This document shows, one piece after another, positions 22,901 to 53,493 of a DNA stretch of 64,000 bases; position 1 is the first letter of the stretch; every line of letters begins with the position of its first letter. Source of the DNA: Bacteroidota bacterium (GTDB lineage Bacteria > Bacteroidota > Bacteroidia > CAIKAF01); assembly GCA_016866335.1 (NCBI GenBank), contig VGMT01000004.1:15294-79293 (forward strand). Direction: 5' to 3'. The notes beneath the pieces were generated by a model. The model was not told the origin of the DNA. It did not search any database and saw only the letters and a program-made list of their open reading frames with translations. The translations under genes were made by a program, and so were the position numbers.

Positions 22901-23398
22901 ATGAAACCTTTGCATAAACGCCCACTGGACCTTGTTCTGTGGGTTTTTTATTTGGTAAACTTCCTGGTGGTTGTTTACATGATTGATTTAGAACAACTTA
23001 CGGTGAAACAGCCAGGGCTTTCCGAATATCCTCTTTGGCCTCCGCCCTTTATGATTGACCTAATTCATTGGTACGGCTACAATTTCGACCCTCTGTTGAT
23101 CGCTAGGCCGCCCTGGTGGCAAGCAACCATTTGGATTGATGTGTTGTTTTTTGGACCCTTTTACGCCTTTGCACTCTACGCTTTTTGGAAAGGGAAAAAC
23201 TGGATTCGATTCGGGGCTATTGTTTGGGCCTCTATGCTGATAACCAACGTTACCATTATACTTTTCGAAGAATTTTTTGGGCCGCACGCCTCGCCCCAAT
23301 TAGCCCGGGTTTTGCTCGCCAATGCAGCTTGGTTTATTTTCCCAGTCCTTACATTGTATCGGGCTTGGCGCTCTCCAGTAATGTTCAATGACAATTAG
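22901..23398 (+). CDS. EXPERA-domain membrane protein (TMEM97 / sigma-2 receptor / EBP-like, DUF2781)
   Basis: 165 aa, 4 predicted TM segments. WYGYNFDPLLIARPPWWQATIWIDVLFFGPFYAFALYAFWKGKNWIRFGAIVW..ILFEEFF parallels my recollection of human TMEM97 ([50 protein letters not shown]). Confidence 0.6.
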   Translation: MKPLHKRPLDLVLWVFYLVNFLVVVYMIDLEQLTVKQPGLSEYPLWPPPFMIDLIHWYGYNFDPLLIARPPWWQATIWIDVLFFGPFYAFALYAFWKGKNWIRFGAIVWASMLITNVTIILFEEFFGPHASPQLARVLLANAAWFIFPVLTLYRAWRSPVMFNDN

Positions 23399-23432
23399 GC
23401 CCAAGGCCAGTACGATTGATTTATTTTTTTGT

Positions 23433-23573
23433 GGGGCGGCAGCCGGGCTTTCACAGGTAGTCCTCAGCAAAAGGGACTGGGGCAGCGGGCTTGCGTGGGC
23501 TCCTAAAGTCGCCTCCGCGCCACGCGCCCCAGACCCTTTCGCTTTGCGGGCTACCTTGTTCAATCCCTGCCGC
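23433..23573 (+). repeat. GC-rich structured intergenic repeat, family A, copy A1 (the most diverged copy)
   Basis: GGGGCGGCAGCCGGGCTTTC..GCGTGGGCTCCTAAAGTCGCCTCCGC..CAATCCCTGCCGC aligns over its full length with 25971-26115 and with the reverse complements of 27323-27467 and 53089-53233. Confidence 0.9.
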
Positions 23574-23634
23574 AAATGCCTCTATGTTAAAAACGGATTA
23601 AAAAAGAATTTTCAAAAAAAATGCGTTTTGCTCT

Positions 23635-25578: not shown

Positions 25579-25965
25579 ATGGAAAAGCAGATCTTGCAAA
25601 CAGCGGCAGCGCCGCAGGCCATTGGCCCGTACAGCCAGGGTGTTGGGTTTGGAAACCTCTGGTTTTTTTCCGGGCAAATTGCCCTAGATCCCGAAACGGG
25701 AGAACTGAAAAACCAAAGTTTAGCGGTCGAGGTAGAGCAGGTGTTGAACAACATTGATGCCTTGCTAAGGGCTGCGGGTGCCGACTGGAGCGACATCCTT
25801 AAAACAAGTATTTTTTTAATCGACATGGCCGATTTTTCGGCGGTGAATGAAGCCTACGCCCGCCGATTCAATACCGCCTTTCCTGCCCGCGAAACGGTGG
25901 CGGTGGCACAGCTTCCCAGGGGAGCCAGGGTTGAAATCTCGGTGGTGCTGGCCCGAAAGGAATAA
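25579..25965 (+). CDS. ridA: RidA/YjgF-family enamine/imine deaminase
   Basis: MEKQILQTAAAPQAIGPYSQGV..FFSGQIALDPETGEL..PARETVAVAQLPRGARVEI. The ORF-track start at 25381 lies inside the ALDH gene. An alternative ATG at 25501 would add a signal-like peptide. Confidence 0.85.
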   Translation: MEKQILQTAAAPQAIGPYSQGVGFGNLWFFSGQIALDPETGELKNQSLAVEVEQVLNNIDALLRAAGADWSDILKTSIFLIDMADFSAVNEAYARRFNTAFPARETVAVAQLPRGARVEISVVLARKE

Positions 25966-25970
25966 ATTTT

Positions 25971-26115
25971 GGGCGGCAGCCGGGCTTTCTGGGCTACTCC
26001 GCGGTTGCCGAAAGGCTGGCCCAGCGGGTTTACGGGGGCTCCTAAAGTCGCCTCCGCACCTCGCGGGCCAGGCTTCGGCACCCTTGCGGGCTAGCCTCAT
26101 CAATCCCTGCCGCGG
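25971..26115 (+). repeat. GC-rich structured intergenic repeat, family A, copy A2
   Basis: GGGCGGCAGCCGGGCTTTCTGGGCTACTCCGCGGTTGCCGAAAGGCTGGCCCAGCGGGTTTACGGGGGCTCCTAAAGTCGCCTCCGCACCTCGCGGGCCAGGCTTCGGCACCCTTGCGGGCTAGCCTCATCAATCCCTGCCGCGG. Begins 6 nt after the RidA stop. Confidence 0.95.
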
Positions 26116-26185
26116 TTGCGGCGTTGTGGCCGTTTATCAAATACACCCCAAAAAAAGACACCCCCCATTTCCTTACCTTTGCCCC

Positions 26186-27214: not shown

Positions 27215-27322
27215 GACACGCCCCGACATACCCCTCGTCCCTCGATACCTAATATTCCAACGAGGAATGCCGCACCCCGCCCCATGCAGGCATATTTAAA
27301 CGGTTGTTTTTTACGAAAGGCC

Positions 27323-27467
27323 CCGCGGCAGGGATTGATGAGGCTACCCCGCAAGGGTGCCGAGGACTGGCCCGCTAGGTGCGGAGGCGACCTTAGGAGC
27401 CCCCGCAAACCAGCTGGGCCAGCCTTTCGGCAACCGCGGAGTAGCCCAGAAAGCCCGGCTGCCGCCC
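27323..27467 (-). repeat. GC-rich structured intergenic repeat, family A, copy A3 (inverted orientation)
   Basis: The reverse complement aligns with A2 almost base for base. Confidence 0.95.
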
Positions 27468-27614
27468 TAAATGGTATTCTAAACCACCTTTCCCAAACCC
27501 CTTTATGTAGCTCAAATCCATGCTCTGTAGGGGCTAAGAGCCTGTTTTATGCCCACAGTTATTAACAAAACCCCCATTTTATTAACAAAATGCTTGATTT
27601 TACAAGGGGTTTAC

Positions 27615-28120: not shown

Positions 28121-28330
28121 ATGGCTTTTTCAAATTTATTTCGATGGGCTAAGCAAATACTTTGGTATCAAATGCAGCAAAGGGGCTTGGGGGGCTGTCT
28201 AAAATGAGCCGAACACAAATGCATGGACATGGTCAAAAGCCTAGGCCTGTCGTTTGGTAATAGGCAAAAATTCTTGGCAAAGCCAATGGGTTTTTGTATT
28301 TTTACACATTAATTGGTTAATAGCCTGATT

Positions 28331-31321: not shown

Positions 31322-31335
31322 ATTTCCTCATAAAA

Positions 31336-34300
31336 ATGGCAAAGCGGAGTTCGCTGTTTTTTTTCCTCTTGGCCATTTCCCTATTTGGGATAGTCTTTCA
31401 GGCTAAGGCACAAACCAGCTGCTACACAAATCCTTCGATGGAGGGGCCTGCAGTGCCTCACCAGGTTCCCTCTCCTTGGCTGGCATGCTATGGTTCGCCC
31501 GACACCCAACCAGGAAACTGGGGCTTTACTCAGCCCGCCTCAAACGGTAATACCTATGTGAGTTTTCTACACTCCGGTCAAAGCCCTAATGGGTATAAGG
31601 AAGGAATGACTCAATTGTTGAATCCCTGCCTTCAGGGCGGTACAACCTACACCATAACGGTTGATTTGGCCTATTCCCCCATTTACAATACAGCAGGTCC
31701 GGGCAATTGCCCAAGTAGTTTTGCAATGTATGGAGGAAACTCTGCCTGCGCAATTTCTGAAACCCTGTTGGTGTCAGGCCCTATTACCCATCCCAACTGG
31801 GTAACGTACACCTTTACGTTTACCCCAACGCAGAATTTCTGTTACATTTCGTTTGCGCCCTACTTTACTGGAGCTTGTACAGGGTACATCAACATTATGA
31901 TTGATAACTTTACCTGTATTCAGCCTGCTTTAGTAAATGCCACTTCAACCCCTGAATCCTGCCCCGGGGCTTGCAATGGAACGGCCACGGCCAATGTTAC
32001 CCAAGGTGTTCCCCCTTACACGTATTCCTGGTCTCCGGGCGGTCAAACTACTCCCACCATTTCAAATCTTTGCCAAGGCTCGTACACCGTAACGGTAACC
32101 GACAACGTAGGTCAGCAAGCCAGCAGCACAACCACGGTTGGTGGTCCTCAAGCTTTCAGTACCACTGTTACCGGAGCCAATGTGTCGTGTTTTGGCCAAA
32201 ACAACGGTACGGCCAACATCGTTACCTTGGGCGGCACATCCCCTTACACCTATTCATGGGCTCCCTCGGGCTTAAACGTGTTTAACCCCGCTGGCCTAAG
32301 CGCTGGAACCCATGTGGTTACGGTAACCGATGCGGCTGGCTGCACCACGACCGATTCCATTTCGTTGACCGAGCCCCCAGTTTTGATTGGAACCATCGCC
32401 TCCTCAACTCCTGCCTTGTGCTTTGGTTCAAATTCTGGAACCATTACAGGTACAGGGTCGGGCGGAACACCTCCATATACCTATACGTGGACTCCAGGAG
32501 GAAACGGTCAAACCCTGTTTAATGCCGTTGCCAATCAGCTTTACACGCTAAACGTTGTTGATGCCATGGGCTGCTTGGCCCAAGCAACCCACCAAATTAC
32601 CCAACCCACGCAGTTGGTTGGGGGAATCATCAACCCCATTCAACCAAGTTGCTTTGGAAACAACAACGGCTCCCTTACCTCAAACGTATCGGGCGGAACG
32701 CCCCCTTATTCCTATTTTTGGAATCCAACAGGCCAAACTACAGCCCAAGCAACAAACCTTAGTGCGGGCAATCACAGCCTGATGATTATCGATGCCAATG
32801 GCTGCATGGTGAATGTCAGTTTCCCACTTAGTCAGCCATCCGTCCTTTCGGTCGGTATCCCTAGTTTTACGAATCTAACCTGCTTTAATTCTGCCAATGG
32901 CACCGCTAGTGCTATGGTCGGTGGCGGCACTCCGCCATACTCCTATTTATGGTCGCCAAGCGGGTCCACCGTTTCAAATCCAAGCAATTTGTCGGCAGGA
33001 ACCCATACCTTGACCGTAACCGATTCGCGCGGGTGCACCGCAACAGCAAGCCGAACGCTTACCCAACCTCCAGCCATTGTTCCTATTCTTCAACAAATGA
33101 CGCCCACCTCTTGCTTCGGAGGAAACAACGGTAGCCTTTCCGTTCAAGTTAGCGGTGGCGTGCCCGGGTATTCCTACAGCTGGTCTCCCAATATTGGAAA
33201 TGGCCTTAACCCTACCGGCCTTTCGGCAGGGAGCTATCAGCTTACCATAACCGATCAAAACAACTGCAGCCAATCGGCCTCTTATTCTGTTACTCAACCC
33301 AATCTGCTTCAGGCAAACGCCCAAATGATTTCAGGGCCACTCTGCCATGGCGATACCAACGCTGTTTTGCAGGCTTCGGCCCAAGGAGGTGTGGCACCTT
33401 ATGCTTACCTTTGGAACAACGGCCAAACAGGGCCCAATTTTGGTTCAGCAGGTTTAGGAACCTACTCTGTTGTTGCTACCGATGCCAATGGATGTACCGC
33501 TTCCGATACAGTCATAGTAGCGAATCCAGCCCTGCTTGACATTCAGTTTGCAACCGCTCAAATGCCTTCTTGCTTTGGTTTTTCAAACGGCAACGCTTCC
33601 TTTATCGGCAGCGGTGGAACAGGCGCTTTGTCGTACCAATGGATTCCTAACGGCGGAAACCAAGCCTCAGCAAACAACCTGCCTGCCGGCAATTACCAAT
33701 GCATTGTTACCGACGCCAATGGATGCAGCGATACCGGCTCGGTTGCCCTTACTCAACCCACAGCTCTTTCTATCGCTGCCCCAAGTTTGCAGCAGGTTAC
33801 CTGTTATGGTTTAAGCAACGGACAAGCTTCGGTTTCCGTTTCGGGTGCCACTCCGCCCTATTCTTACCTCTGGAATACTGGAAGCACAACAAATTCTACT
33901 TCAAACCTGGTTGCAGGAAACTATTCCGTGGTGGTTACCGATGCCCAAGGTTGCGTGGATTCAATTTCAGCCCAAATTACCCAGCCCCCCGTTTTGCAAA
34001 CTCAATTTGCAGCTTTCGACGATTCTCTATGTGTGGGGCAAACGTTTTCGCTCAGTGCCCAAGTTAGTGGAGGTACTCCCAACTACACGTATGCTTGGTC
34101 CAACGGCGCCAATGGCTCAACCGGAAGCGCTACCGCTGTTCAAGGCCAAAATTCCTTGTCGGTTACGGTTACCGATGCCCAGGGTTGCCAAAGCACCATC
34201 GGTGGCTCTGCCCTCGCTGGGTCTATCCCCCAAGCTCAATTTACGGTATCTCCTGTTTGCTTAGGTCAGCCGGTGAACATCGCTAATTCTCCCAGCAACG

Positions 34301-35256
34301 CTTACGGTGCACTGGTTCAGACTACCCTGTCTTTGGGCAATGGCACCACAACCAATGGCAGCGGTAACGTTCAGTATATCTATCCTTCTATTGGCCCTTG
34401 GACCTTAACTCAAATTGTTCGAACCGAATTTGGCTGTGCCGATACCGCCACCCAAACCCTCACGCTGTTTGACATGCCTCAGGTGGCATTCAGTCCAATG
34501 CAAGCCGAAGGTTGCAGCCCCGTTTGCTTAACCTTCACCGACCAATCTACCGTTCAAAATGCCAGCATCGCTACCTACGATTGGCAAGACAATGGACAAT
34601 CTTTCGCCTCAACAGCGCAACCCTATGCCTGTTTCTCAGGTTCGGGAACCCACCAAATTCATTTGACAGTAACCAGCAGCGATGGTTGTACAGCCTCATC
34701 GGCCGTCCCAGCCTTGATTCAGGTTTACCCAAATCCAACGGCAGCCTTTGGAATTACACCCCAGCAGGTTTCCAATGCGAATCCCCTGGTTACCATTACA
34801 AACAGCAGCCAGCTCGGAACCCAGTACATGTATTTTCTGCCCGACGGAACCATTCAAACCGAACCCAGCTTTAGCTATTCAAATTCCGATACCGGAACCC
34901 ACTGCATCCAATTGATCCTTTCAACCGATTACGGCTGCGTCGATTCTGCTACCGCCTGCTATCGGGTAGCGCCCGAGTACAGCTTGTACATTCCGAACGC
35001 CTTTACCCCCAATGGCGATGGGCTAAACGATATGTTCCAAATTAAAGGCGTCGGTATCTCCGATTTTGAAATGTCGGTGTTCGACCGCTGGGGAATTCTG
35101 TTGTTCCAGTCAACCGATCCCTTGAAAGGTTGGACAGGACACCACCTTGAAACCTACCAGCCCGTCATGCAAGGTGTGTATGTTTTTAAAGTGGATGTCA
35201 AAGACATTTGGAACAAATACCACAGTGTGGTAGGCCGAGTTCACCTGATTCGCTAA
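31336..35256 (+). CDS. T9SS type-B (CHU_C) cell-surface protein with SprB repeats and PKD domains, tandem paralog of the previous gene
   Basis: Same architecture, with more SprB repeats (~31.9-34.2 kb). C-terminus YIPNAFTPNGDGLNDMFQIKG..FDRWGILLF..WTG..QGVYVFKVDV. The N-terminal domain is much more similar to gene 1 than the repeat region is. Confidence 0.9.
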   Translation: MAKRSSLFFFLLAISLFGIVFQAKAQTSCYTNPSMEGPAVPHQVPSPWLACYGSPDTQPGNWGFTQPASNGNTYVSFLHSGQSPNGYKEGMTQLLNPCLQGGTTYTITVDLAYSPIYNTAGPGNCPSSFAMYGGNSACAISETLLVSGPITHPNWVTYTFTFTPTQNFCYISFAPYFTGACTGYINIMIDNFTCIQPALVNATSTPESCPGACNGTATANVTQGVPPYTYSWSPGGQTTPTISNLCQGSYTVTVTDNVGQQASSTTTVGGPQAFSTTVTGANVSCFGQNNGTANIVTLGGTSPYTYSWAPSGLNVFNPAGLSAGTHVVTVTDAAGCTTTDSISLTEPPVLIGTIASSTPALCFGSNSGTITGTGSGGTPPYTYTWTPGGNGQTLFNAVANQLYTLNVVDAMGCLAQATHQITQPTQLVGGIINPIQPSCFGNNNGSLTSNVSGGTPPYSYFWNPTGQTTAQATNLSAGNHSLMIIDANGCMVNVSFPLSQPSVLSVGIPSFTNLTCFNSANGTASAMVGGGTPPYSYLWSPSGSTVSNPSNLSAGTHTLTVTDSRGCTATASRTLTQPPAIVPILQQMTPTSCFGGNNGSLSVQVSGGVPGYSYSWSPNIGNGLNPTGLSAGSYQLTITDQNNCSQSASYSVTQPNLLQANAQMISGPLCHGDTNAVLQASAQGGVAPYAYLWNNGQTGPNFGSAGLGTYSVVATDANGCTASDTVIVANPALLDIQFATAQMPSCFGFSNGNASFIGSGGTGALSYQWIPNGGNQASANNLPAGNYQCIVTDANGCSDTGSVALTQPTALSIAAPSLQQVTCYGLSNGQASVSVSGATPPYSYLWNTGSTTNSTSNLVAGNYSVVVTDAQGCVDSISAQITQPPVLQTQFAAFDDSLCVGQTFSLSAQVSGGTPNYTYAWSNGANGSTGSATAVQGQNSLSVTVTDAQGCQSTIGGSALAGSIPQAQFTVSPVCLGQPVNIANSPSNAYGALVQTTLSLGNGTTTNGSGNVQYIYPSIGPWTLTQIVRTEFGCADTATQTLTLFDMPQVAFSPMQAEGCSPVCLTFTDQSTVQNASIATYDWQDNGQSFASTAQPYACFSGSGTHQIHLTVTSSDGCTASSAVPALIQVYPNPTAAFGITPQQVSNANPLVTITNSSQLGTQYMYFLPDGTIQTEPSFSYSNSDTGTHCIQLILSTDYGCVDSATACYRVAPEYSLYIPNAFTPNGDGLNDMFQIKGVGISDFEMSVFDRWGILLFQSTDPLKGWTGHHLETYQPVMQGVYVFKVDVKDIWNKYHSVVGRVHLIR

Positions 35257-35292: not shown

Positions 35293-36261
35293 ATGGAAGC
35301 AACCCTTGATATTTCTATCGTCGTTCCTCTATATAACGAAGAAGAGTCCCTTCCGGAATTAATGGCTTGGATCGACAGAGTGATGCAAGCCCATGCTTGG
35401 AATTACGAGGTTATTATGATCGATGACGGCTCAAAAGACACGTCCTGGAAAGTCATACAACAGCTCAAATCTTCGTTTCCTTCCTTAAGAGGCTTCTCTT
35501 TTCGACGCAATTACGGCAAATCTGCCGCCCTGAATGTAGGTTTTGAAGCATGCCGAGGTCGGGTGGTCATAACCATGGACGCAGACCTGCAAGACAGCCC
35601 CGATGAAATCCCCGCCCTGTATGCAAAAATTATGGACGAGGGTTTTGATTTGATTTCAGGCTGGAAACGAAAACGCTTTGACCCCCTTTCTAAAACAATT
35701 CCCACTAAGCTTTTTAACTGGGCTACCCGTAAATTAAGCGGCATACACCTGCATGATTTTAACTGTGGCCTAAAAGCCTATCGCTACGATGTGGTAAAAA
35801 GCATCGAGGTCTATGGCGAAATGCACCGCTATATTCCCGTTTTGGCCAAGTGGGCAGGCTTTACCAACATTGGCGAACAAGTGGTTCAACACCAAGCCCG
35901 AAAATACGGAACATCAAAGTTTGGGCTCGAACGCTTCATCAACGGATTCCTAGACCTTTTGTCTATCACTTTTGTTTCTAGATTTTCAAAGAAACCCATG
36001 CACTTTTTCGGCCTTTTAGGCCTGATTATGTTCAAGGTGGGCGGGTTTTTAGCCCTGTGGTTGGTTACTGAAAAATTCTATATCACCTATTTTTTAGATG
36101 AACGGGCCCCTCTGGTTACCCAAAATCCCTTGTTCTACCTGGGCCTACTAAGCATGATTTTGGGCACTCAGTTCTTTTTGGCGGGGTTCATTGCCGAATT
36201 GGTTTCACGGAACGCTCCCGACCGCAACCGTTACCACATCAAAGACCAAACCGATGTCTGA
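35293..36261 (+). CDS. GT2 polyprenol-phosphate glycosyltransferase (DPM1/GtrB/ArnC-like)
   Basis: ISIVVPLYNEEESLPEL..VIMIDDGSKDTS..RNYGKSAALNVGF..VITMDADLQDSPDEIP..WKRKR.DP, followed by two C-terminal TM segments. Confidence 0.9.
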   Translation: MEATLDISIVVPLYNEEESLPELMAWIDRVMQAHAWNYEVIMIDDGSKDTSWKVIQQLKSSFPSLRGFSFRRNYGKSAALNVGFEACRGRVVITMDADLQDSPDEIPALYAKIMDEGFDLISGWKRKRFDPLSKTIPTKLFNWATRKLSGIHLHDFNCGLKAYRYDVVKSIEVYGEMHRYIPVLAKWAGFTNIGEQVVQHQARKYGTSKFGLERFINGFLDLLSITFVSRFSKKPMHFFGLLGLIMFKVGGFLALWLVTEKFYITYFLDERAPLVTQNPLFYLGLLSMILGTQFFLAGFIAELVSRNAPDRNRYHIKDQTDV

Positions 36262-37279
36262 ACACCTGCAGGTGTTTCATGAAGGAAACCGCGAGCACAT
36301 TGAGTTTTCTTTGATTTCTCCAACCTTTCGTCGTCCCGACGAGGTTGCAGAATTCTTAGACTCCCTTCAAAGCCAAACCTATCCCCACTTCGAGGTGATC
36401 TTGGCCGATGGAACACCTCAGATTTCCTTGGCCGATATCGCCCGTAACCACCGTGGCAACCTGGATTTAACCTTTTTATACGAATCTGGCCTTCCTGTCT
36501 CGGCCGCCCGCAACGCTGCCGCGGCTGTCGCTCGCGGGCGTTATTTTATTTTCCTGGATTCCGACTGCTTAATTCCCCCCGACTACCTTAGCATCGTCTC
36601 CGAGCACCTGCTCCGCGCAGACCTGAATTTGTTCGGCGGCCCCGACGCTGCTCATCCTTCTTTCAGTCCCGTACAACGCGCCATTTCATACTCCATGACC
36701 GGCTTGTTTACCACGGGCGGTATTCGAGGCAAAAAGACCCGCGTGGGCGTGTTTCATCCCAGGGGGTTCAACATGGGGGTTCAACGGGATTGGTTTCAAT
36801 CCGTGGGCGGGTATTCCACTCTTAAATGCGGCGAAGACATTGAGCTCAGCATGCGGCTCATCGCCGCGGGGGCTAAGTCGGCCCTGATTCCCAAAGCCAA
36901 GGTTTTCCACAAGCGCCGGACCGATTTCAACGCCTTTTACCGTCAAGTTTACCGCTTTGGCGCTGCCCGAATACACTTGCACCTTGCCCACAAAGGTCAG
37001 TTAAAGGCTACCCACGTTTTTCCCGCTGCATTTTTGCTTTTCCATTTGGCGCTTATTCCCGCCCTTTTATTACCTAAAATGCTGTTAATAATGCTGCTCA
37101 TCAGCGGAATTTATTCCCTGCTGATTCTGTTCCATGCAAGCATTCAGGAACGCAGCCTGTTTGTTGGTTTGCTCTCGGTCCGCGCCGCATACACACAATT
37201 GATGGGCTATGGGGCTGGCTTTTTACACAATGCCTGGGAGGTGTACGGCCGCAATAGGCCTGAGGGACTCGATTTGTGA
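36254..37279 (+). CDS. GT2 glycosyltransferase with C-terminal TM segments
   Basis: FSLISPTFRRPDEVAEFLDSLQSQTY..FEVILADG..ARNAAAAVARGRYFIFLDSDC... The ATG at 36254 overlaps the stop of the previous GT2 gene by 8 nt. Confidence 0.85.
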   Translation: MSEHLQVFHEGNREHIEFSLISPTFRRPDEVAEFLDSLQSQTYPHFEVILADGTPQISLADIARNHRGNLDLTFLYESGLPVSAARNAAAAVARGRYFIFLDSDCLIPPDYLSIVSEHLLRADLNLFGGPDAAHPSFSPVQRAISYSMTGLFTTGGIRGKKTRVGVFHPRGFNMGVQRDWFQSVGGYSTLKCGEDIELSMRLIAAGAKSALIPKAKVFHKRRTDFNAFYRQVYRFGAARIHLHLAHKGQLKATHVFPAAFLLFHLALIPALLLPKMLLIMLLISGIYSLLILFHASIQERSLFVGLLSVRAAYTQLMGYGAGFLHNAWEVYGRNRPEGLDL

Positions 37280-37436
37280 TTTTTTTGGGGGCCATTTCCG
37301 GCTTTCCGCTGCAAGTCCACAGCCGGTCCGGCTGCCGTACAGCGGGCTGCGGTGGCTTCGTTCCTCAGCCTCCTCGCCACGCGTACGGCTGCCGCCCCAA
37401 CTGCGTCCTTTCCACTGCAATCCGGGGCCCGGGCCA
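37280..37436 (+). repeat. GC-rich intergenic repeat, family B, copy B1
   Basis: TTTTTTTGGGGGCCATTTCCGGCTTT at the 5' end and CTGCAATCCGGGGCCCGGGCCA at the 3' end match 52882-53036. Starts immediately after the GT2 stop codon. Confidence 0.85.
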
Positions 37437-37458
37437 CTCACAATTAGAAATGCCTCAA

Positions 37459-45717: not shown

Positions 45718-45981
45718 TCAATTCTGCATCAAAACATAAAACATAACCACCAATAGACCTAGCACGGCTATGGCAATAGCCACCTTTTCCTTAAACTCAT
45801 CTACTTTCTGCCGCTGTTGACGCAATTTAATATACTCATTTCTTAATTCGGTGATTTTTGCATCGTCCGGCCCTTCCTCAAAACCGCAATTCGGACATTC
45901 CGATTGCTGCTGGGAAAAATCTTTTAGACAAACCGGGCAAGACCAGCCCCAATCGTTAAATTCTCGTTGATCAGTTCCCAT
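45718..45981 (-). CDS. Small zinc-ribbon protein with a C-terminal TM anchor (hypothetical)
   Basis: CPVC..(13 aa)..CPNC, then a charged coiled segment, then VAIAIAVLGLLVVMFYVL at the C-terminus. Confidence 0.5.
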   Translation of the reverse strand: MGTDQREFNDWGWSCPVCLKDFSQQQSECPNCGFEEGPDDAKITELRNEYIKLRQQRQKVDEFKEKVAIAIAVLGLLVVMFYVLMQN

Positions 45982-46395
45982 GGAATAATTTCAAACTTTT
46001 CTTACGGCAAATATTTCCCTTAAAGACGATTAAAAGACGTTCAAAAGGCAAAAATATTGCAGTAAATCACTCCTTTAAACATCTTTCCATACAAATATAA
46101 AGGAAAATTTATTTCTGCGTTAATAGAATGTTGTCCTGAAACGTGATTTGCCTGCCCCAAAAGATTAAATATGCTGCCTTTGGTTGATTGAACAGGTTTT
46201 TATCCTCTCTTGATTGGTTGAACACAAAATTGGCATGGTTTTTTCTTACTCGACCTCTGACGTGTTTTTTCCTTGGGACCTAGATGTCTTGAATTACTCA
46301 AACATCTAATTTCCATTGTTTTATATTTCTTTTGTCCCTTTACAAGGGGCGTGGCATGATTTTTGCTAAAATGCCGCGTTAAGGAATATTTTAAA

Positions 46396-49300
46396 ATGGA
46401 GAAAACCCTACCTAACCAAGTTGAGCCTATCGCTATTGTAGGCATTGGATGTCGTTTCCCCGGTGGCGCTGCCAGTCCGGATGAATTCTGGAACCTATTG
46501 GCCGAAGGCACCGATTGCATTATAGACGTACCGAAAGACCGCTGGGACTATCGCCGGTATTTTGATCCCGAAACCGACCGGCCAGGGAAGTCCCACCAAT
46601 TCCAGGGCGGCTTTTTAAAGCTGCGCGTCGAAGAATTTGACCCCCTTTTCTTTGGTATGTCCCCTCGCGAGGCCGCCGTTCTTGATCCTCAACAACGGTT
46701 GTTGCTCCAAACTACTTGGGAGGCATTCGAAGATGCGGGGTACACCGCAGAACAAATGAAAGGATCTGAAACCGGCGTTTTTGTGGGCGGATTTTGCTTC
46801 GATAATAAATTGCAACAACTAGGGCCCCTTAACAGGGATTTAATCGGTTCTCATACCGCGACGTCCTCTACAATGGTTATGCTTTCGAACCGCATTTCCT
46901 ACGCGTTTGACCTTCGAGGCCCTTCCTTAAGTATTGATACCGCATGTTCTTCCGCTTTGGTGGCTGCCCACTATGCCTGCCAATCCATTTGGTCTGGCGA
47001 AAGCGATATGGCCATTGCCGGAGGTGTAAATATTATGCTGCGCCCCGAGTATCCCATTGCTATGAGCAAAGGTCAATTCCTGAGCAAGCACAGCCGATGC
47101 AAAGCCTTTGATGAAGATGCCGGTGGATATGTGCGTGGTGAAGGTGTTGGAGTGGTTATTTTTAAACCCCTTTCCAAAGCCATGGCCGACGGCGATTATG
47201 TCTATGCCGTTGTGCGCTCTACAGGTTCAAACCAAGATGGTGCCACCAACGGCATCACAGTGCCGAACCCCGATGCCCAAGAGGCCCTAATCCGAAAGGT
47301 GTACGAACGTGCGGGCATTAAACCTACCGATATACGCTATGTTGAAGCGCACGGAACCGGAACAAAGGCCGGGGACCCCGTTGAGATTACCGCTTTAAAT
47401 AATGTGCTTTCTGAAGGCAGGGCCCCGGGCGATAAGGTTTTTGTAGGTTCGGTAAAAACCAACATTGGCCACCTTGAGGCTGGAGCCGGCATTGCTGGAA
47501 TCATCAAATCTGCGATTTCCGTAAACCGCCGCCAAATTCCTCCACACCTTCACTTTAAAAAAGCCAACCCCAAAATCGATTTCGAAAACCTGGCCTTAAA
47601 AGTGCCTCTAACCCTAGAGGCCTATCCAGAAGGGCCAGCCTTGGTTTCCATCAATTCATTCGGCTACGGTGGTACCAACGGCCACATGGTGGTTCAAGAA
47701 CCTCCCCGCGATTACCTAAGCCATTTTCAGCCAAACGGCAAAGACGTTCAACGCCATCAATGGCTGTTCCCAATATCCGCCCGAAGCGAAAACGCCCTCA
47801 AAGGCATTGTGGTAAAATACATCGACTTCTTGAAGAAAGGCGATATTGGCTTGGCCGATTTTGCCTATTCGTTAAGCCACCGTCGCACCCACCACAATCA
47901 CCGATTGACCGTTGTGGCCGGCAGCAAAGAAGAACTTTTGGAAAAATTGCAGGCCTATGCCAATGGCGATGCCGCACCCGGATTGAACCAACAACAAACC
48001 GTTGAACAGCCTCAATTGGTTTGGGTGTTTACCGGAATGGGGCCCCAATGGTGGGCCATGGGTCGTGAATTGTACAACCAAGAACCGCTTTTTAAAGCCA
48101 AACTCGACGAATGCGATGCGATTTTCAAAGGCATTGCCGGTTGGTCGCTCTTGGAAGAAATGATGAAGCCCGAGGCCGAATCTGGCATGGCCGCAACAAA
48201 AATTGCTCAGCCCGCCAATTTCTTCGTTCAAGCCGGCCTAATTGAGCTTTGGGAAAATTGGGGCATCCGCCCCGACGCCGTGGTCGGCCATTCCGTAGGC
48301 GAAGTTCCTGCCGCTTATTATTCAGGTGCCCTGACTTTGGCCGAAGGTGTGCTGGTTTCGTACCACCGCTCTCGCTGCCAGCAAATGACCGCCGGACAAG
48401 GTACCATGCTGGCCGTTGGGCTTGGCGAAGACGATGCCCAAGCTTTGGTTAATGAGCTGGGTTTGACCTCTACCATTTCGGTAGCCGCCATCAACTCTTT
48501 TAGTGGTGTAACTTTAGCAGGAACCAAAGATTCCTTAGAAAAAGTAGGCGAGGTTTGCACCCAAAGGCAAATTTTCAATAAAATGCTGACGGTCGAGGTG
48601 GCCTACCACTCCTACCAAATGGATCCTTTGCAAGAGGAACTTTTGAAATCTTTGGCCAACCTTAAGCCCCAAACCGCAAAAATTCCATTGTATTCAACCG
48701 TTACCGGTACCCGGATGGACGGAAAGGAATTTGGCACGGAGTACTGGTGGCAAAACGTGAGGCAGCCTGTGCGTTTTGCGAAGGCCGCCCAAACCCTGGT
48801 GAACGACGGCTATTCTATTTTCTTGGAAGTGGGCCCTCACCCTGTTTTGCGCACCAACATCAATGAGTGCTTGAATGCCGCCGATAAAAAAGGCCATACC
48901 GTTCCTTCTTTGCGCCGCGGCGATCCAGAATTGGCGACCCTGCTCAATAGCTTAGGTATGCTCCACGGATTGGGATTCCAAGTTAATTGGGCCAACTTTA
49001 CCTCCGGCGGACACTTCGTGAAATTGCCTACCTACGCCTGGGATATGGACGATTATTGGCAAGAATCCCCACGCTCGATCGAAGAAAAACACGGCGTACC
49101 CGGACATGTGTTCCTGAACAACAACCTACGCATGCCTTTCCCCGCTTGGGAGGTTGAAATCAACCGTTATTTTATGCCTTGGATGGACGACCATAAAATT
49201 GAGTCCATGACCGTTATCCCAGGAGCCGCTTACGTCGAGGCCGGCCTAGCTTTGCACGAAAAAACGTTCGAGAACCAAGCCTGTACTTTGCAAAATCTTG

Positions 49301-52300
49301 AGTTCCACCAGGTTTTGGTGGTTGATGAAAAGAAAGTGCAAATGTTCCATACCCAATACAACCCTTCAACCAAAGGATATTCGGTGTTTAGCCGCTACCG
49401 CGAAGACGAATCACCCTGGACCCTGCATGCCACTGGTCGCATGCTGAAAGACACCGTTTCGCGTACCATTCCAACCTTCGGTTTTGGAGAGGTGCAAAAG
49501 CGATGCACCAAAGAATTGTCGGCTCCCGATTTGTATGTTACTCTTGCCAACCGAGGCCTACACTATGGGCCATGGTTCCAGGGAATCAAGCAAATTTTTA
49601 AAGGAGACAACGAGGTACTGGTGCGGATTGAAGGCAATGAATCTCTAGCCATCAATACCGATAATTACCTGCTGCACCCCACCATTTTGGACTCTGGTTT
49701 CCAAACCATGGTGGCCATTGTTGAAGAAAGCAGCAACAACCCAAGTCCGTTTGTCCCTGTTTCCATTTCACAGGTGGTATTTTATACCAGCCCTGGCGAG
49801 GCGTGTTGGAGCTACTGCCAAATTACCGAACGCAAAGAAAACAGCATCAAAGGCGATTTGATTTTGTTCGACGACCGCGGAGAAGTCTTGGTTTCTCTTC
49901 ATGGAATCACCTGCCAAGCCATTTCTTCGGGCAGCGGCAGCGAAGACAACACTTCGGACGAATGGTTCTATGAATACCAATGGAAAACATCTGAAGTCGA
50001 AGCCTCTCAAGTGGCCGGCGAACATTGGATGATTTTTGGCGACGATGCAGACCTAACAACCGATTTGATTGGCGCCCTGGCCGAACAAGGGGTAACCAGC
50101 ACCTTGGTTATGGCCGCCGACGATTACATGCTCGAAGACATGCTGGCTACCGTACGTCCTAATCAGGAAGCCGATTTTAACCAATTGATGAGCGATACCA
50201 AAGAAATGGGAATTTCAAGGGTGCTGTATTTGTGGTCGGCTCAGCCCGATTCTGAAAACCTAGCTTTGACCCCCGATGGCATTGTTGATCGCACCATGCC
50301 CGCTGTGTATTTGGGCAAGGCTTTGGCATCAAACTGGGGCGGAAAATCAGTGAAGTGGGCAAGCGTAACCACAGGAGCCCAAGCACTGCGCGAGGGCGAA
50401 GCCCTGGCTTCACTCGAAACTACCCCGTTCTGGGGTATGGCTCGACTTATCAGCAACGAGCATCCAAACATTAAAACCTGCATGGTCGATTTGGCCGCTG
50501 CCGATTCAAACGCCAATACCCTTGTGCGCGAACTGAGCAGCGATTGGAATCAAGACGATGTGGCTTACCGAAACGGACAGCGTTACGTTAAAACCCTGCA
50601 GCGGGCTTCGTTCAAAGACGACTCGGCCGAAAAAACCACCCTGGTTTCAACCGAAACCCCGGTTTCGCTCGAAATTGGGCAAATTGGCCGCATCGATTCC
50701 TTGCACTACGAACGCACCGAACGCCGGGCACCCGAGGCCGGAGAAGTGGAAATTCAAACGTTCGCCTCTTGCCTTAACTTAAAAGACGTCCTAAAGGTGA
50801 TTGGCCAACTTTCACTCAAAGCGACTTCGGGAACCTACTTTGAAAGCACCTTTGGAATGGAGGCCAGCGGCATTGTTACCCGCGTAGGCGCAGGCGTTAC
50901 CGACTTTAAAGTGGGCGACGAAATCGTTCTTGCAGCTCAAAACGGTTGCTTGAAATCTTACGTTACCGCCTTGCCAACCTTCTACATTCGCAAACCCAAA
51001 CACATTGCTTGGGAAGATTGCCTAATGGTGGTTCCTTACATGACCGTATTGTATGGCTTGCGCGATAGGGCTCAACTCCAGAAAGGAGAAAAAATCCTGA
51101 TTCACAATGCCACCGGTGGAGTAGGCCTTGCCGCTATTCAGTGGGCGAAACATGTGGGTGCCGAAATTTTTGCCACCGCAGGTAGCGAAGAAAAACGGCA
51201 GCATTTGAAAAACCTAGGTCTGGATCACGTGTACGATTCCAGGTCACTGGATTTTGCTACCGACATTCGCCGCGATACCGGCGGGTACGGGGTAGATGTG
51301 GTTATCAATGCCATCGCCGGCGAAGCCCTGTATCAATCCTTCGAACTGTTGGCCTCATACGGCCGATTCGTAGAAATCGGAAAACGCGACATCTCTGAAA
51401 ACAACGGTCTGCCAATGGCGGCCTTTAACCGCAACATTACCTTCCACGGCATTGACGTAGATAGGTTGATGATCGAACGAACTCCCGTTGTTCAAGGACT
51501 GCTTCGCGATATTGAACGCTACTACGACCAAGGCATTTTTGCCGCCGTTAACACCCATTTGTTCGGTGCGGCCCAAGCCGAAGAAGCCTTTACCTTCTTG
51601 GCCCAATCAAAACACATGGGCAAGGTGGTGATGAACTTTAAAGACCAGGCCGTGCCAGTAGCCAAAACCCAAGAAACCAAGGAATTGGATTTGGAAGGTT
51701 CTTACATGATTACCGGCGGTACCGGCGGATTTGGTTTGCAAATTGCCGATTGGTTAAGCCAACGCGGCGTGGCTCAGTTGATCTTGGCCTCGCGCAGCGG
51801 TGCCAAATCAGACGAGGCCAAAGAAGCCATTGCAAAAATGCAGGCCCGCGGAACCAACGTCTGGGCCGAGCCCCTCGACATCACCAATGCCGATGCCGTA
51901 AACGCTATGATTCAATCCATGCAAGGCAACATGCCTGCTCTGAAAGGCATTGTGCACGGAGCCGTGGTGTTGGACGATGGTTTCTTGATGGATATGAACC
52001 GCGACCGGTTTATGACTTCATTCCAGGCTAAAGTAGGCGGAGCCTTGAATTTGCACCGCGCTACCCAGCATCTGAATCTTGATTTCTTCCTGTCTTTCTC
52101 TTCCATTTCAGCGTTGATTGGAAACAACGGACAGGCCAACTATGTGGCTGCCAACGCTTTCTTAGATGGTTTTGCCCATTACAGAAGTGGCTTGGGTTTG
52201 GCCGGAACCACCGTGAATTTGGGTGTGCTTGGCGAGGTGGGCGTGGCCGCCCGCGATGCCAACGTTACGGCCATTTTGGAATCGGGCGGAATCAAAGGCT

Positions 52301-52839
52301 TTAGCAACAAACAAGCCTTAGACGGCTTGGGAATGGTCCTTGACCAAGCTCCGGTGCAAATAGGAATGTTTGACGTTGATTGGCACCGCTGGGCCAGCGT
52401 GAACGGCGGGGCGGCTCAATCTTCAAGGTTTAAAGACCTTGTTGCTGCCGCAGGAGCTGGTAGCGGTACCAACGCGGTGCTGGGCGAATTGGCTGCAGCG
52501 CTTACTGTGCTGAGCGAGTCCGAGCGTTTGGGCTTTATGGAGCAAGCCACCGCCGAAGAATTGGCTGGAGTTCTGAAGCTTTCGGTCGAGAAAATTGACC
52601 GCAGCCGGGGCATCAATTTGCTGGGCATCGACTCGCTTATGGCGGTTGAACTGGGCCGGGCAATTCAAGGCCGATTTGGTCTTGAAGTGAGCACCATGGA
52701 GCTGTTGAGCGGTCCAAATACAACCCAGTTGGCCTCGGCTTTGCTTGAAAAAGCGAAGGCTTCGGGCGCGCTCATGGGCAATGTGGACGACCTAAGCGAG
52801 GAGGAGCTTGACGCTCTGCTGGCCGAAGTCAAAGAATAA
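46396..52839 (+). CDS. Single-module, fully reducing type I polyketide synthase (KS-AT-DH-ER-KR-ACP, no TE)
   Basis: All six domains are recognised by active-site motifs (see the domain entries). The ATG at 46396 (MEKTLPNQVEPIAIVGIGCRFPGG) is preferred over the ORF-track start at 46363. Confidence 0.97.
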   Translation: MEKTLPNQVEPIAIVGIGCRFPGGAASPDEFWNLLAEGTDCIIDVPKDRWDYRRYFDPETDRPGKSHQFQGGFLKLRVEEFDPLFFGMSPREAAVLDPQQRLLLQTTWEAFEDAGYTAEQMKGSETGVFVGGFCFDNKLQQLGPLNRDLIGSHTATSSTMVMLSNRISYAFDLRGPSLSIDTACSSALVAAHYACQSIWSGESDMAIAGGVNIMLRPEYPIAMSKGQFLSKHSRCKAFDEDAGGYVRGEGVGVVIFKPLSKAMADGDYVYAVVRSTGSNQDGATNGITVPNPDAQEALIRKVYERAGIKPTDIRYVEAHGTGTKAGDPVEITALNNVLSEGRAPGDKVFVGSVKTNIGHLEAGAGIAGIIKSAISVNRRQIPPHLHFKKANPKIDFENLALKVPLTLEAYPEGPALVSINSFGYGGTNGHMVVQEPPRDYLSHFQPNGKDVQRHQWLFPISARSENALKGIVVKYIDFLKKGDIGLADFAYSLSHRRTHHNHRLTVVAGSKEELLEKLQAYANGDAAPGLNQQQTVEQPQLVWVFTGMGPQWWAMGRELYNQEPLFKAKLDECDAIFKGIAGWSLLEEMMKPEAESGMAATKIAQPANFFVQAGLIELWENWGIRPDAVVGHSVGEVPAAYYSGALTLAEGVLVSYHRSRCQQMTAGQGTMLAVGLGEDDAQALVNELGLTSTISVAAINSFSGVTLAGTKDSLEKVGEVCTQRQIFNKMLTVEVAYHSYQMDPLQEELLKSLANLKPQTAKIPLYSTVTGTRMDGKEFGTEYWWQNVRQPVRFAKAAQTLVNDGYSIFLEVGPHPVLRTNINECLNAADKKGHTVPSLRRGDPELATLLNSLGMLHGLGFQVNWANFTSGGHFVKLPTYAWDMDDYWQESPRSIEEKHGVPGHVFLNNNLRMPFPAWEVEINRYFMPWMDDHKIESMTVIPGAAYVEAGLALHEKTFENQACTLQNLEFHQVLVVDEKKVQMFHTQYNPSTKGYSVFSRYREDESPWTLHATGRMLKDTVSRTIPTFGFGEVQKRCTKELSAPDLYVTLANRGLHYGPWFQGIKQIFKGDNEVLVRIEGNESLAINTDNYLLHPTILDSGFQTMVAIVEESSNNPSPFVPVSISQVVFYTSPGEACWSYCQITERKENSIKGDLILFDDRGEVLVSLHGITCQAISSGSGSEDNTSDEWFYEYQWKTSEVEASQVAGEHWMIFGDDADLTTDLIGALAEQGVTSTLVMAADDYMLEDMLATVRPNQEADFNQLMSDTKEMGISRVLYLWSAQPDSENLALTPDGIVDRTMPAVYLGKALASNWGGKSVKWASVTTGAQALREGEALASLETTPFWGMARLISNEHPNIKTCMVDLAAADSNANTLVRELSSDWNQDDVAYRNGQRYVKTLQRASFKDDSAEKTTLVSTETPVSLEIGQIGRIDSLHYERTERRAPEAGEVEIQTFASCLNLKDVLKVIGQLSLKATSGTYFESTFGMEASGIVTRVGAGVTDFKVGDEIVLAAQNGCLKSYVTALPTFYIRKPKHIAWEDCLMVVPYMTVLYGLRDRAQLQKGEKILIHNATGGVGLAAIQWAKHVGAEIFATAGSEEKRQHLKNLGLDHVYDSRSLDFATDIRRDTGGYGVDVVINAIAGEALYQSFELLASYGRFVEIGKRDISENNGLPMAAFNRNITFHGIDVDRLMIERTPVVQGLLRDIERYYDQGIFAAVNTHLFGAAQAEEAFTFLAQSKHMGKVVMNFKDQAVPVAKTQETKELDLEGSYMITGGTGGFGLQIADWLSQRGVAQLILASRSGAKSDEAKEAIAKMQARGTNVWAEPLDITNADAVNAMIQSMQGNMPALKGIVHGAVVLDDGFLMDMNRDRFMTSFQAKVGGALNLHRATQHLNLDFFLSFSSISALIGNNGQANYVAANAFLDGFAHYRSGLGLAGTTVNLGVLGEVGVAARDANVTAILESGGIKGFSNKQALDGLGMVLDQAPVQIGMFDVDWHRWASVNGGAAQSSRFKDLVAAAGAGSGTNAVLGELAAALTVLSESERLGFMEQATAEELAGVLKLSVEKIDRSRGINLLGIDSLMAVELGRAIQGRFGLEVSTMELLSGPNTTQLASALLEKAKASGALMGNVDDLSEEELDALLAEVKE
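46423..47700 (+). other. PKS ketosynthase domain
   Basis: IAIVGIGCRFPGG. SIDTACSSALVA with the Cys codon at 46945-46947. EAHGTGTKAGDP. KTNIGHLEAGAG. Confidence 0.95.
48013..48990 (+). other. PKS acyltransferase domain
   Basis: VWVFTGMGPQW. VVGHSVGEV with the Ser codon at 48292-48294. The specificity position reads VAYH, which is neither canonical HAFH nor YASH. Confidence 0.9.
49090..49930 (+). other. PKS dehydratase domain
   Basis: HVFLNN..PWMDDHKIESMTVIPGAAYVE (His codon at 49192-49194; the HxxxGxxxxP position has S in place of G). Downstream ..LLHPTILDSGFQ... Confidence 0.8.
50690..51640 (+). other. PKS enoylreductase domain (MDR type)
   Basis: GEVEIQTFASCLNLKDV.., ..ILIHNATGGVGLAAIQWAKHVGAEIFATAGS.., ..MGKVVM. 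Confidence 0.9.
51697..52250 (+). other. PKS ketoreductase domain (B-type, LDD motif)
   Basis: YMITGGTGGFGLQIADWL. HGAVVLDDGF (LDD). SSISALIGNNGQANYVAANAFLD. Confidence 0.9.
52480..52750 (+). other. PKS acyl carrier protein domain
   Basis: LLGIDSLMAVEL, with the phosphopantetheine Ser codon at 52633-52635. The protein ends about 70 aa later with no thioesterase. Confidence 0.9.
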
Positions 52840-52847
52840 ATGAACGC

Positions 52848-52880
52848 AACCGGCGAGCTTGGTCTTGCCGGTTTTTTTTG
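52848..52880 (+). terminator. Rho-independent terminator of the PKS gene
   Basis: AACCGGC-gagcttggtctt-GCCGGTT followed by TTTTTTT. Confidence 0.8.
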
Positions 52881-52881
52881 C

Positions 52882-53036
52882 TTTTTTTGGGGGCCATTTC
52901 CGGCTTTACGTTCTAGGGCGCAGCCATAAACGGCACTGGGCTGGGCGCTGCGTGGGCTCCCAAGGTCGCCTCCGCCCGCCTGCCCAGTTTGGCCGTTTGT
53001 GGCCACGCCCTATCACTGCTATCCGGGGCCCGGGCC
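52882..53036 (+). repeat. GC-rich intergenic repeat, family B, copy B2 (B-type ends with an A-type apex hairpin)
   Basis: The ends match B1. The centre contains GCGTGGGCTCCCAAGGTCGCCTCCGC (compare family A), flanked by pairing arms AAACGGCACTGGGC / GCCCAGTTTGGCCGTTT. Confidence 0.85.
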
Positions 53037-53088
53037 AACCCATTCTAAGCTCCCTCTTTTTATTGGAACATGTCCGATTTATGGCCGC

Positions 53089-53233
53089 CCGCGGCAGGGA
53101 TTGAAGAGGCTTGCCCGCAAGGGAGCCGAAGACTGGCCCGCTAGGTGCGGAGGCGACTTTAGGAGCCCCCGCAAACCAGCTGGGCCAGCCTTTCGGCAAC
53201 CGCGGACTAGCCCTGAAAGCCCGCAGGCGCCCC
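53089..53233 (-). repeat. GC-rich structured intergenic repeat, family A, copy A4 (inverted orientation)
   Basis: The reverse complement aligns with A2/A3 over its full length. Lies about 50 nt after B2. Confidence 0.93.
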
Positions 53234-53420
53234 CGTTAAAAAAGGCCCTTTACCTCTATTTTTAATCGAGTTGAACATTGGTAACATGTAGTATATCAGT
53301 TGTTTAAACTATAAATGCCCCTAAATTCCGGCTCGAATTATATAGAAAATCCTGAAACCTTTGCCAATAAAGGGTTTTAAGCTGTTTATGGACCCTATTT
53401 CCCCCATTATTTATTAACAA

Positions 53421-53456
53421 AGTGGGAAAAAGTGGGAATTAGTGGGTAAAAGTGGG
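53421..53456 (+). promoter_or_regulatory. Predicted MraZ operator: four AGTGGG direct repeats with exact 10-bp phasing
   Basis: AGTGGGaaaaAGTGGGaattAGTGGGtaaaAGTGGG, with repeats at 53421, 53431, 53441 and 53451, 38 nt upstream of the mraZ ATG. This matches the published TGGGN direct-repeat MraZ sites in the mraZ promoter region. Confidence 0.8.
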
Positions 53457-53493
53457 AAAACTTGGCTAATTTAGCCTCTCAGAAGCCCCACCT

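Follow-up and report, generated by a model that had tools for sequence, protein, structure and literature searches.

The PKS gene and its locus

The 64,000-nt stretch of DNA analysed here (contig VGMT01000004.1, positions 15,294 to 79,293; hereafter the window) belongs to an uncultured freshwater member of the Flavobacteriales and carries, on its plus strand, a gene for an iterative, fully reducing type I polyketide synthase (PKS) at positions 46396-52839, stop codon included. The coding sequence was defined by its open reading frame (ORF), which extends without interruption from 46363 to 52839 and yields a protein of 2147 aa from the ATG at 46396, and by public gene calls, where the same start and length have been assigned (P0001, 99% identical, and L080). 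The protein cluster of P0001 comprises 121 member sequences from public assemblies. The gene is intact and under strong purifying selection, as dN, dS and dN/dS were 0.020, 0.78 and 0.026, respectively, in comparison with its relative in locus L001, and 0.043, 1.86 and 0.023 in comparison with that in L010.

An earlier note on this DNA, made from the letters alone, had described a single polypeptide with a ketosynthase (KS), an acyltransferase (AT), a dehydratase (DH), a structural ketoreductase subdomain (psiKR), an enoyl reductase (ER), a ketoreductase (KR) and an acyl carrier protein (ACP), in the order known from mycocerosic acid synthase (MAS) and animal fatty acid synthase (FAS). Pfam coordinates bore out this architecture, and so did the full-length structure of MAS from M. 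tuberculosis (9d2z), which is colinear with the PKS (1054 bits, residues 7-2109 vs. 3-2088). The KS (46423-47556, aa 10-387; PF00109 296 bits, PF02801 139 bits) displays the family-conserved motifs, with the active-site Cys184 in DTACSS (46945-46947), HGTGT (47350-47364) and NIGH (47461-47472) located by motif alignment. It is followed by a KS-AT linker (47566-47970, aa 391-525; PF16197, PF22621, PF22336) and by the AT (48019-48975, aa 542-860; PF00698 257 bits), predicted to be malonyl-specific. The DH (49105-49938, aa 904-1181; PF21089, PF14765) contains His933 (49192-49194) within an HxxxSxxxxP motif, where Ser replaces the canonical Gly, and an Asp in DSGFQ (49690-49704). The interdomain region with the structural psiKR (49939-50667, aa 1182-1424) is colinear with the MAS structure and as short as in MAS. 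The ER (50668-51636, aa 1425-1747), supported by PF08240, PF00107 and PF13602 and by a TIGR02824-like match over residues 1425-1747 (aa 1448-1745 by Pfam coordinates), has the NADPH motif NATGGVG at 51106-51126, and the KR (51697-52230, aa 1768-1945; PF08659 204 bits) shows TGGTGGFG (51712-51735), LDD (51970-51978) and the catalytic Tyr in YVAAN (52141-52155). The ACP (52555-52740, aa 2054-2115; PF00550) carries its phosphopantetheine Ser in GIDSL (52624-52638). All of these domains lie on the plus strand.

The catalytic motifs are all present and conserved across an alignment of 75 family sequences, in agreement with the intact motifs noted previously. Likewise, the absence of a release domain was corroborated: Pfam detected no thioesterase (TE), reductase (R) or condensation (C) domain in the PKS, and just 32 residues follow the ACP.

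The monocistronic layout that the earlier note had proposed, with a terminator of its own and an AT-rich upstream region of about 410 nt, also agreed with our data. An intrinsic-terminator-like hairpin (10 bp, 6 GC) with a T-run follows the PKS stop at 52848-52883 (+), and the divergent intergenic region 5' of the gene (45982-46395) is 414 nt long with 34% GC. No promoter was located in these 414 nt, since a sigma-70 scan performed no better than on shuffled sequences and the Bacteroidetes TAnnTTTG motif was not found. The location between pgk and the division and cell wall (dcw) cluster was confirmed, with an 87-aa minus-strand ORF lying between pgk and the PKS. Further upstream, anmK and the genes for an acyl-CoA dehydrogenase, an FGE-type enzyme and a sulfatase occupy the minus strand, and glyA and pgk come next, before the 87-aa ORF; downstream, the dcw cluster reads mraZ-mraW-ftsL-ftsI-murE-mraY-murD-ftsW-murG. 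Among the 39 main ORFs of the window that were scanned, Pfam identified no phosphopantetheinyl transferase (PPTase), TE, acyl-AMP ligase, α-oxoamine synthase (AOS) or second PKS module.

AT signature and predicted extender unit

The AT motif VAYH had been regarded as non-canonical, and the extender unit as unreadable from it. The first of these views did not withstand the comparison with other family members. The two diagnostic motifs of the AT, GHSVGE (48286-48303, +) and VAYHS (48598-48612, +), were placed by a family tally and by alignment with the ATs of DEBS and MAS, where VAYH aligns at the HAFH/YASH position of the solved ATs. In the 75 family sequences, this position reads VAYH (36), VPYH (19), IAYH (7) or LAYH (4), and GHSVGE is present in 52 of the 75. 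Judged by these alignments, VAYH is a family signature and not an anomaly of the window gene.

Malonyl-specific ATs combine an aromatic residue at position 3 of this motif with a branched hydrophobic residue in GHSxG. The methylmalonyl-specific ATs of DEBS align with GHSQGE and YASH, in contrast to GHSVGE and VAYH in the window AT; homologues of the SgaA type, from the Pseudomonas system discussed below, have GHSVGE and YAFH. Because an aromatic position 3 together with a non-Gln GHSxG are malonyl-type features, we predict malonyl-CoA as the extender unit and a product chain that is unbranched apart from the contribution of the starter. These features make a methyl-branched (mycocerosic-type) product unlikely. 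The guess in the earlier note of a saturated or methyl-branched acyl group for an envelope lipid pointed in the right direction with regard to the envelope lipid, but probably not with regard to the methyl branch.

An alpha-oxoamine synthase accompanies the PKS family

Among metagenome-assembled genomes (MAGs), those with the PKSs closest to that of the window were CAILUT (Lake Erken), CAIKAF and JAQCBQ, with identities of 96%, 94% and 93%, respectively. Proteins of the same length and architecture occur in Flavobacteriales, Chitinophagales, Planctomycetota, Opitutales, Bacillota, Myxococcota, Nitrosomonas, methanotrophs, Cellvibrio and Mycobacteriaceae. For 79 loci with homologous PKSs, every ORF up to 10 kb away from the PKS was included in a clustering, in which the commonest neighbour was a protein of 430-510 aa encoded directly downstream in 20 of the 79 loci, across many phyla. 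This protein is a class I/II aminotransferase (Aminotran_1_2) of the AOS type, and the PKS-AOS loci include those of Flavobacteriales, Planctomycetota, Nitrosomonas, Methylobacter, Cellvibrio and Mycobacteriaceae. Ca. Uabimicrobium has a fusion protein, KS-AT-DH-ER-KR-ACP-AOS, with the AOS as its C-terminal part; its PKS portion shows 45% identity to the window PKS, and its AOS portion shows 60% identity to that of the MAG nearest the window. A homologue from Chitinophagales (49% identical) also forms a PKS-AOS pair, with genes for a cytochrome P450, an amine oxidase and a short-chain dehydrogenase/reductase (SDR) downstream.

A further, conserved set of three genes was observed downstream of PKS-AOS in Nitrosomonas, methanotrophs and other Proteobacteria. 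It codes for an MMPL/RND-type transporter, a LolA-like protein and a 412-aa protein without a Pfam match (L045:17847-22231, with equivalents in L033, L043, L053, L056, L058, L061, L064 and L067), and suggests a dedicated export route of the lipid product to the outer membrane.

In a neighbour-joining (NJ) tree, the clade of the window PKS comprises 13 solo-PKS loci, whose chromosomal sites differ between subclades. None of the 13 related solo loci has an AOS within 10 kb of the PKS, and tblastn revealed no AOS, TE or SDR homologue in the window or in the flanks of these loci. The sister of the solo clade is L009, a Flavobacteriales MAG with PKS, AOS, SDR and thioesterase genes in a row; 100 of 100 NJ bootstraps recovered the solo clade, both by itself and joined with L009. 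The AOS gene adjoins the PKS gene in this sister lineage (L009/L186) and in L174.

Two other neighbours were considered and rejected. A gene for an MBL-fold plus rhodanese protein, divergent upstream of the PKS in most of the relatives with 66-76% identity, was discarded as a thioesterase-type release enzyme, because it is absent from the subclade of the window and the rhodanese fusion points to sulfur metabolism. A 457-471-aa protein without a Pfam match is encoded directly 5' of the PKS on the same strand at L009:8565-9980 and L268:6520-7893; its copies are 76-80% identical, and the PKSs of both hosts (Flavobacteriales) are 52-54% identical to that of the window. It was discarded as a partner, being conserved between L009 and L268 only and absent from the loci of the window clade.

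Co-occurrence of both genes was analysed in 185,579 species genomes. In a search with a profile of PKS-linked AOSs, two of the three best matches to the L009 AOS were contigs of MAGs with a solo PKS on another contig. A scan with an alignment of Flavobacteriales AOSs retrieved an orthologue in 19 Bacteroidia MAGs (62-79% identical to one another), and the clade-specific PKS peptide [IV]STMELLSGP[NT] was present in 24 MAGs, all Flavobacteriales/Bacteroidia; all 19 AOS-bearing MAGs fall within these 24. They include the three closest ones (PKSs 93-96% identical to that of the window), with the AOS at L176:8019-9404 and in L166 and L167. CAYWET and JBLFWJ are the only MAGs in which the PKS and AOS genes are direct neighbours; otherwise they are located on different contigs or far apart, and in JAGYKD, around 765 kb separate them on one 1.57-Mb contig. 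The description of the gene as an orphan without partners applies to the 64 kb of the window but probably not beyond, where the clade co-occurs with an SPT-like AOS that is adjacent or fused to the PKS in relatives. Given this adjacency, fusion and co-occurrence, the route of chain release, which the earlier note had left open, is no longer fully so.

In the closest MAGs, the AOS is encoded by intact genes and has the pyridoxal phosphate (PLP)-lysine motif TFSKSF. In comparison with solved relatives, the AOS scored 239 bits with the serine palmitoyltransferase (SPT) of Sphingobacterium, 213 with human SPTLC2, 204 with KBL/AONS and 167 with cysteate acyltransferase, and it is 47% identical to the SgaB homologues of Pseudomonas and Bordetella. 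By these measures the AOS looks functional and SPT-like, and a sulfonolipid (cysteate acyltransferase) function was rejected on the difference between 167 and 239 bits. In L104, another aminotransferase encoded close to the AOS turned out to be a plain Kbl (556 bits).

With regard to the genes beside the AOS, an SDR of the epimerase/3beta-HSD type adjoins it in the majority of subclades and follows it in L009, L082, L168-170, L174, L175 and L185, and genes for ApbE, a PhyH-type dioxygenase and a PMT_2 glycosyltransferase adjoin it in L164 and L165. In the MAGs closest to the window, a histidine kinase and a response regulator gene precede the unlinked AOS and a family 2 glycosyltransferase (GT2) gene follows it (L176:9500-10441, L166:9443-10402 and L167:9443-10402). 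We consider these genes (SDR, GT2, PhyH and others) candidate tailoring genes for the predicted sphingoid base. In other subclades, HAD and MFS genes were seen to accompany the SDR after the AOS.

Both proteins also have distinctive termini. The PKS ends in an acidic tail, NVDDLSEEELDALLAEVKE (52780-52836, +), a candidate docking helix for a trans partner, and the end DDLSEEELDALLAEVKE is almost invariant across the Flavobacteriales clade. Similar acidic LSxEExDxLL tails are found in relatives whose PKS precedes an AOS or another PKS or non-ribosomal peptide synthetase (NRPS) module. The partner AOSs of all phyla, in turn, start with a basic N-terminal LSxEEKRxLLKxLL helix, which is retained in the unlinked AOSs of Flavobacteriales; it belongs to a 60-aa N-terminal extension that precedes all alignments with solved SPTs (first aligned AOS residue, 59-62). 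The acidic end of the PKS and the basic start of the AOS may be complementary docking elements, which would explain how the products of unlinked genes pair.

Comparison with known systems

It has long been held that bacterial sphingolipids depend on an SPT acting on the products of ordinary fatty acid synthesis. In P. fluorescens MYb115, both the iterative type I PKS SgaA and the AOS SgaB were needed for the formation of C24, C26 and C28 sphinganines and of phosphoglycerol sphingolipids (Peters et al., Nat Commun 2025, PMC12134224). The same study reported SPT activity of SgaB with a strong preference for L-serine, a spacing of the SgaAB products by C2H4 units, and a probable role of the SDR SgaC in reducing the 3-keto intermediate. 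Its survey of adjacent pairs with cblaster yielded 6,101 clusters, mostly in Proteobacteria; Nitrosomonas is listed and Bacteroidota genera are not (PMC12134224). Nitrosomonas PKS-AOS loci are present in our locus set as well. Literature searches on later SgaAB work and on MAS-like PKSs of Bacteroidetes retrieved only this paper.

The window PKS shares with SgaA a monomodular, iterative KS-AT-DH-ER-KR-ACP organisation without a TE, in the same catalytic order as the Pseudomonas homologue L122. Further, the family has its evolutionary partner in an SPT-like AOS with an extended N-terminus, the AT combines GHSVGE with an aromatic residue at motif position 3, and an SDR stands beside the AOS in several relatives of the window. 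The systems differ in that PKS-AOS adjacency, the operational definition of the survey, does not apply at the window PKS, and in that the host phylum, Bacteroidota, is not in the list of 6,101 clusters. The earlier note had named a known pathway with partners encoded elsewhere as the finding that would speak against an orphan synthase, and the SgaAB sphingolipid pathway (PMC12134224) largely corresponds to that case. The logic by which a PKS and an AOS make a sphingoid base is thus already known, and what differs here is the phylum, the compact synthase and the dispersal of the genes.

MAS is the best solved match, colinear over its full length, and the window PKS shares with MAS and the MAS-like Pks2, Pks5 and PpsC the compact psiKR and the lack of a TE, with unloading in trans. 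In contrast to MAS, its AT has no methylmalonyl signature, and its context contains no FadD or PapA, an AOS being the evolutionary partner. NCBIfam equivalogs scored 1275 bits against a cut-off of 2400 (NF041183) and 1284 against 1740 (NF045894). With scores so far below the equivalog cut-offs and an AT without the methylmalonyl signature, the window PKS is, by sequence, not a mycocerosic acid synthase.

Fungal pathways to sphinganine analogues (fumonisin, with the PKS Fum1 and the AOS Fum8; sphingofungin; myriocin) likewise use a reducing iterative PKS, release by a PLP-dependent AOS and a subsequent 3-ketoreductase, but they rely on eukaryotic highly reducing PKSs with C-methyltransferase domains, their genes are clustered, and their products are toxins rather than membrane lipids. 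Canonical sphingolipid and sulfonolipid synthesis in Bacteroidota has the phylum and the AOS superfamily in common with the present system, the best PDB match of the partner AOS being the Sphingobacterium SPT. In that route, SPT or cysteate acyltransferase uses acyl-ACP or acyl-CoA derived from FAS, whereas here a dedicated type I PKS would donate the acyl chain to an AOS bearing the 60-aa extension beyond the solved SPT alignments. The window PKS also differs from animal-type FAS I, which is characterised by a bifunctional MAT and by a C-terminal TE that the window PKS lacks, and from the polyunsaturated fatty acid synthase PfaA, as TIGR02813 reached 376 bits against a cut-off of 1010 and the ACP is single, not tandem.

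Proposed route and alternative explanations

In view of the PKS-AOS adjacency, the fusion and the co-occurrence in genomes, we consider it probable that the window PKS belongs to a split, unclustered and compact MAS-like counterpart of the SgaA/SgaB sphingolipid pathway, with its AOS partner encoded elsewhere in the genome. The PKS would build or elongate a long saturated acyl chain from malonyl-CoA and NADPH, and the chain would remain on its own ACP, as a TE is absent. A SgaB-like AOS of the SPT type, encoded elsewhere, would most likely remove it: in a decarboxylative condensation, this PLP enzyme would join an amino acid, probably L-serine, to the acyl thioester and so give a long-chain amino ketone of the 3-keto-sphinganine type. 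The amino ketone may then be reduced and decorated to a sphingolipid-like membrane lipid, possibly glycosylated, since an SDR adjoins the AOS in several relatives and a GT2 in the closest ones. We infer acyl-ACP to be the direct substrate of the AOS, serine to be the amino acid and a 3-keto-sphinganine to be the product; the chain length, the starter unit and the final lipid of the PKS are likewise inferred.

Several observations weigh against this reading. The window PKS is only 35-37% identical to the SgaA-type proteins of Pseudomonas and Bordetella (L122, L097), and SgaA-type PKSs score 1210-1314 bits against it, little above the 1054 bits of MAS. In addition, they are about 2500 aa long, with some 330 extra residues between DH and ER, in contrast to the 2147 aa of the window PKS. 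On sequence grounds, the latter belongs to a MAS-like subfamily that is distinct and compact and has the AOS partnership in common with SgaA, of which it is not a close orthologue. Within its 64 kb, the window encodes neither an AOS, an SDR or a PPTase nor another partner for lipid tailoring, and the evidence for the AOS comes from MAGs of close relatives rather than from the genome of the window, of which 64 kb were seen. Five PKS-bearing MAGs had no AOS in the pattern scan, which incompleteness or motif drift may explain. As the 24 PKS-bearing MAGs form one clade, one event in their ancestry, rather than co-selection on several occasions, may account for the co-occurrence with the AOS; for many of the most similar AOSs, those of Planctomycetota, no PKS is encoded within 10 kb. 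Even for SgaAB, the biochemical evidence comes from acyl-CoA surrogates and not from direct off-loading of an ACP by the AOS (PMC12134224).

The strongest alternative, which we nevertheless judge unlikely, is a MAS-like synthase with a partner other than the AOS. A discrete acyltransferase (PapA5-like or WS/DGAT) or a type II TE would then release very-long-chain acids or esters for an envelope lipid, and the AOS would act on ordinary acyl-ACP or acyl-CoA. MAS is unloaded in trans, by PapA5. That MAS, the best solved relative, is also TE-less fits this explanation, as do the type II thioesterases within the L009 and L174 clusters and the fact that PKS and AOS are unlinked in nearly all clade members. 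However, no such acyltransferase or TE recurs beside the PKS in the clade, the AT is of the malonyl and not the methylmalonyl type, the scores for NCBIfam Pks2 and related equivalogs are far under their cut-offs, and adjacency, fusion and co-occurrence all favour the AOS.

Less probable still is a dispersed secondary-metabolite pathway, in which the polyketide or amino ketone would be oxidised or cyclised to a bioactive small molecule instead of a membrane lipid. P450, amine oxidase and SDR genes in related clusters (Chitinophagales; neighbour cluster c10) and the linkage of other relatives to multimodular PKS/NRPS genes (neighbour cluster c2) are consistent with such a product, yet in the clade of the window such genes are absent from the vicinity of both PKS and AOS, and the fully reducing domain set argues for a plain alkyl chain.

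A housekeeping type I FAS that replaces or supplements the type II FAS has the domain order of animal FAS in its favour but is very improbable, as the PKS has no thioesterase or MPT-type release domain, occurs in only 24 of the 185,579 species genomes, within one Flavobacteriales/Bacteroidia clade, and sits at different loci between subclades. Finally, a decaying or silent gene, with which the lack of a recognisable promoter would agree, is hardly conceivable for a 6.4-kb frame that is uninterrupted, keeps every catalytic motif, has a dN/dS of about 0.02 at dS 0.8-1.9 and is represented by 121 member sequences in public assemblies.

Returning to the SgaAB-like pathway, the data indicate that a PKS-fed sphingolipid route is also found in Bacteroidota, in a compact MAS-like form with core genes up to hundreds of kilobases apart. 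More tentatively, and with doubts outweighing our confidence, uncultured freshwater Flavobacteriales could make a new PKS-derived lipid class, that is, a very-long-chain or unusual sphingoid, possibly glycosylated, through a separated PKS and SPT-like enzyme that pair by docking helices. If so, PKS-dependent sphingolipid synthesis would be considerably wider spread and older than the adjacent-gene survey suggests, and cluster-based genome mining would systematically miss such split pathways. Orphan TE-less iterative PKSs in many genomes may accordingly have AOS partners encoded in trans that antiSMASH and cblaster leave unconnected. The C-terminal tail of the PKS and the N-terminal helix of the AOS would offer a concrete pair for studying the hand-over of an ACP-bound chain to a PLP enzyme, and, for lake ecology, the pathway predicts an unrecognised lipid class in an abundant group of freshwater Flavobacteriales.

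Other features of the window

The 87-aa ORF between pgk and the PKS (45718-45981, minus strand) has two CxxC pairs, resembling a zinc ribbon, and a hydrophobic C-terminal helix; it has no Pfam match and occupies the same position in L001 and L010. Two GT2 glycosyltransferases are encoded 9-11 kb 5' of the PKS, at 35293-36261 and 36191-37279 (+). The second of them also matches the ceramide glucosyltransferase family, Glyco_transf_21, above its Pfam cut-off (29.8 vs. 21.7 bits), with Glycos_transf_2 scoring higher; this match could have a bearing on a sphingolipid product or be a generic cross-match among GT2 enzymes. Two tandem giant SprB-repeat/PKD proteins with CHU_C type IX secretion signals (28313-35256, +) and a small membrane protein of the EXPERA/EBP superfamily (22901-23398, +) are ordinary for Flavobacteriales.

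Around 35 nt 5' of the mraZ start, four direct GTGGG(A) repeats with 10-nt spacing were observed (53421-53461) and are kept in L010 and L003; in their arrangement they resemble the MraZ operator repeats of E. coli.

Directly after the PKS terminator lie two inverted copies of a GC-rich repeat of 158 nt (63-68% GC). At least six copies are present in the 64 kb, each 0-171 nt after a stop codon and in both orientations: 53082-53239 and 27316-27473 on the plus strand, and 52884-53040, 25965-26124, 23428-23584 and 37282-37439 on the minus strand. A 19-mer of the repeat was found in 57 stretches of freshwater metagenome contigs, around 39 of which are true copies, with several sharing a contig. RNAalifold, applied to 23 copies, predicted 37 pairs, of which 22 show compensatory double changes, in a fold where the invariant GGGAUUGAAG pairs with CUGAAAGCCC, and a covariance model of the repeat scored 136-151 bits on four copies of the window. 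Rfam and tRNA scans of the window gave no matches, and the repeat itself matched no family of Rfam 15; it looks like a repetitive extragenic palindromic (REP)- or miniature inverted-repeat transposable element (MITE)-like element, or a structured RNA outside the described families.

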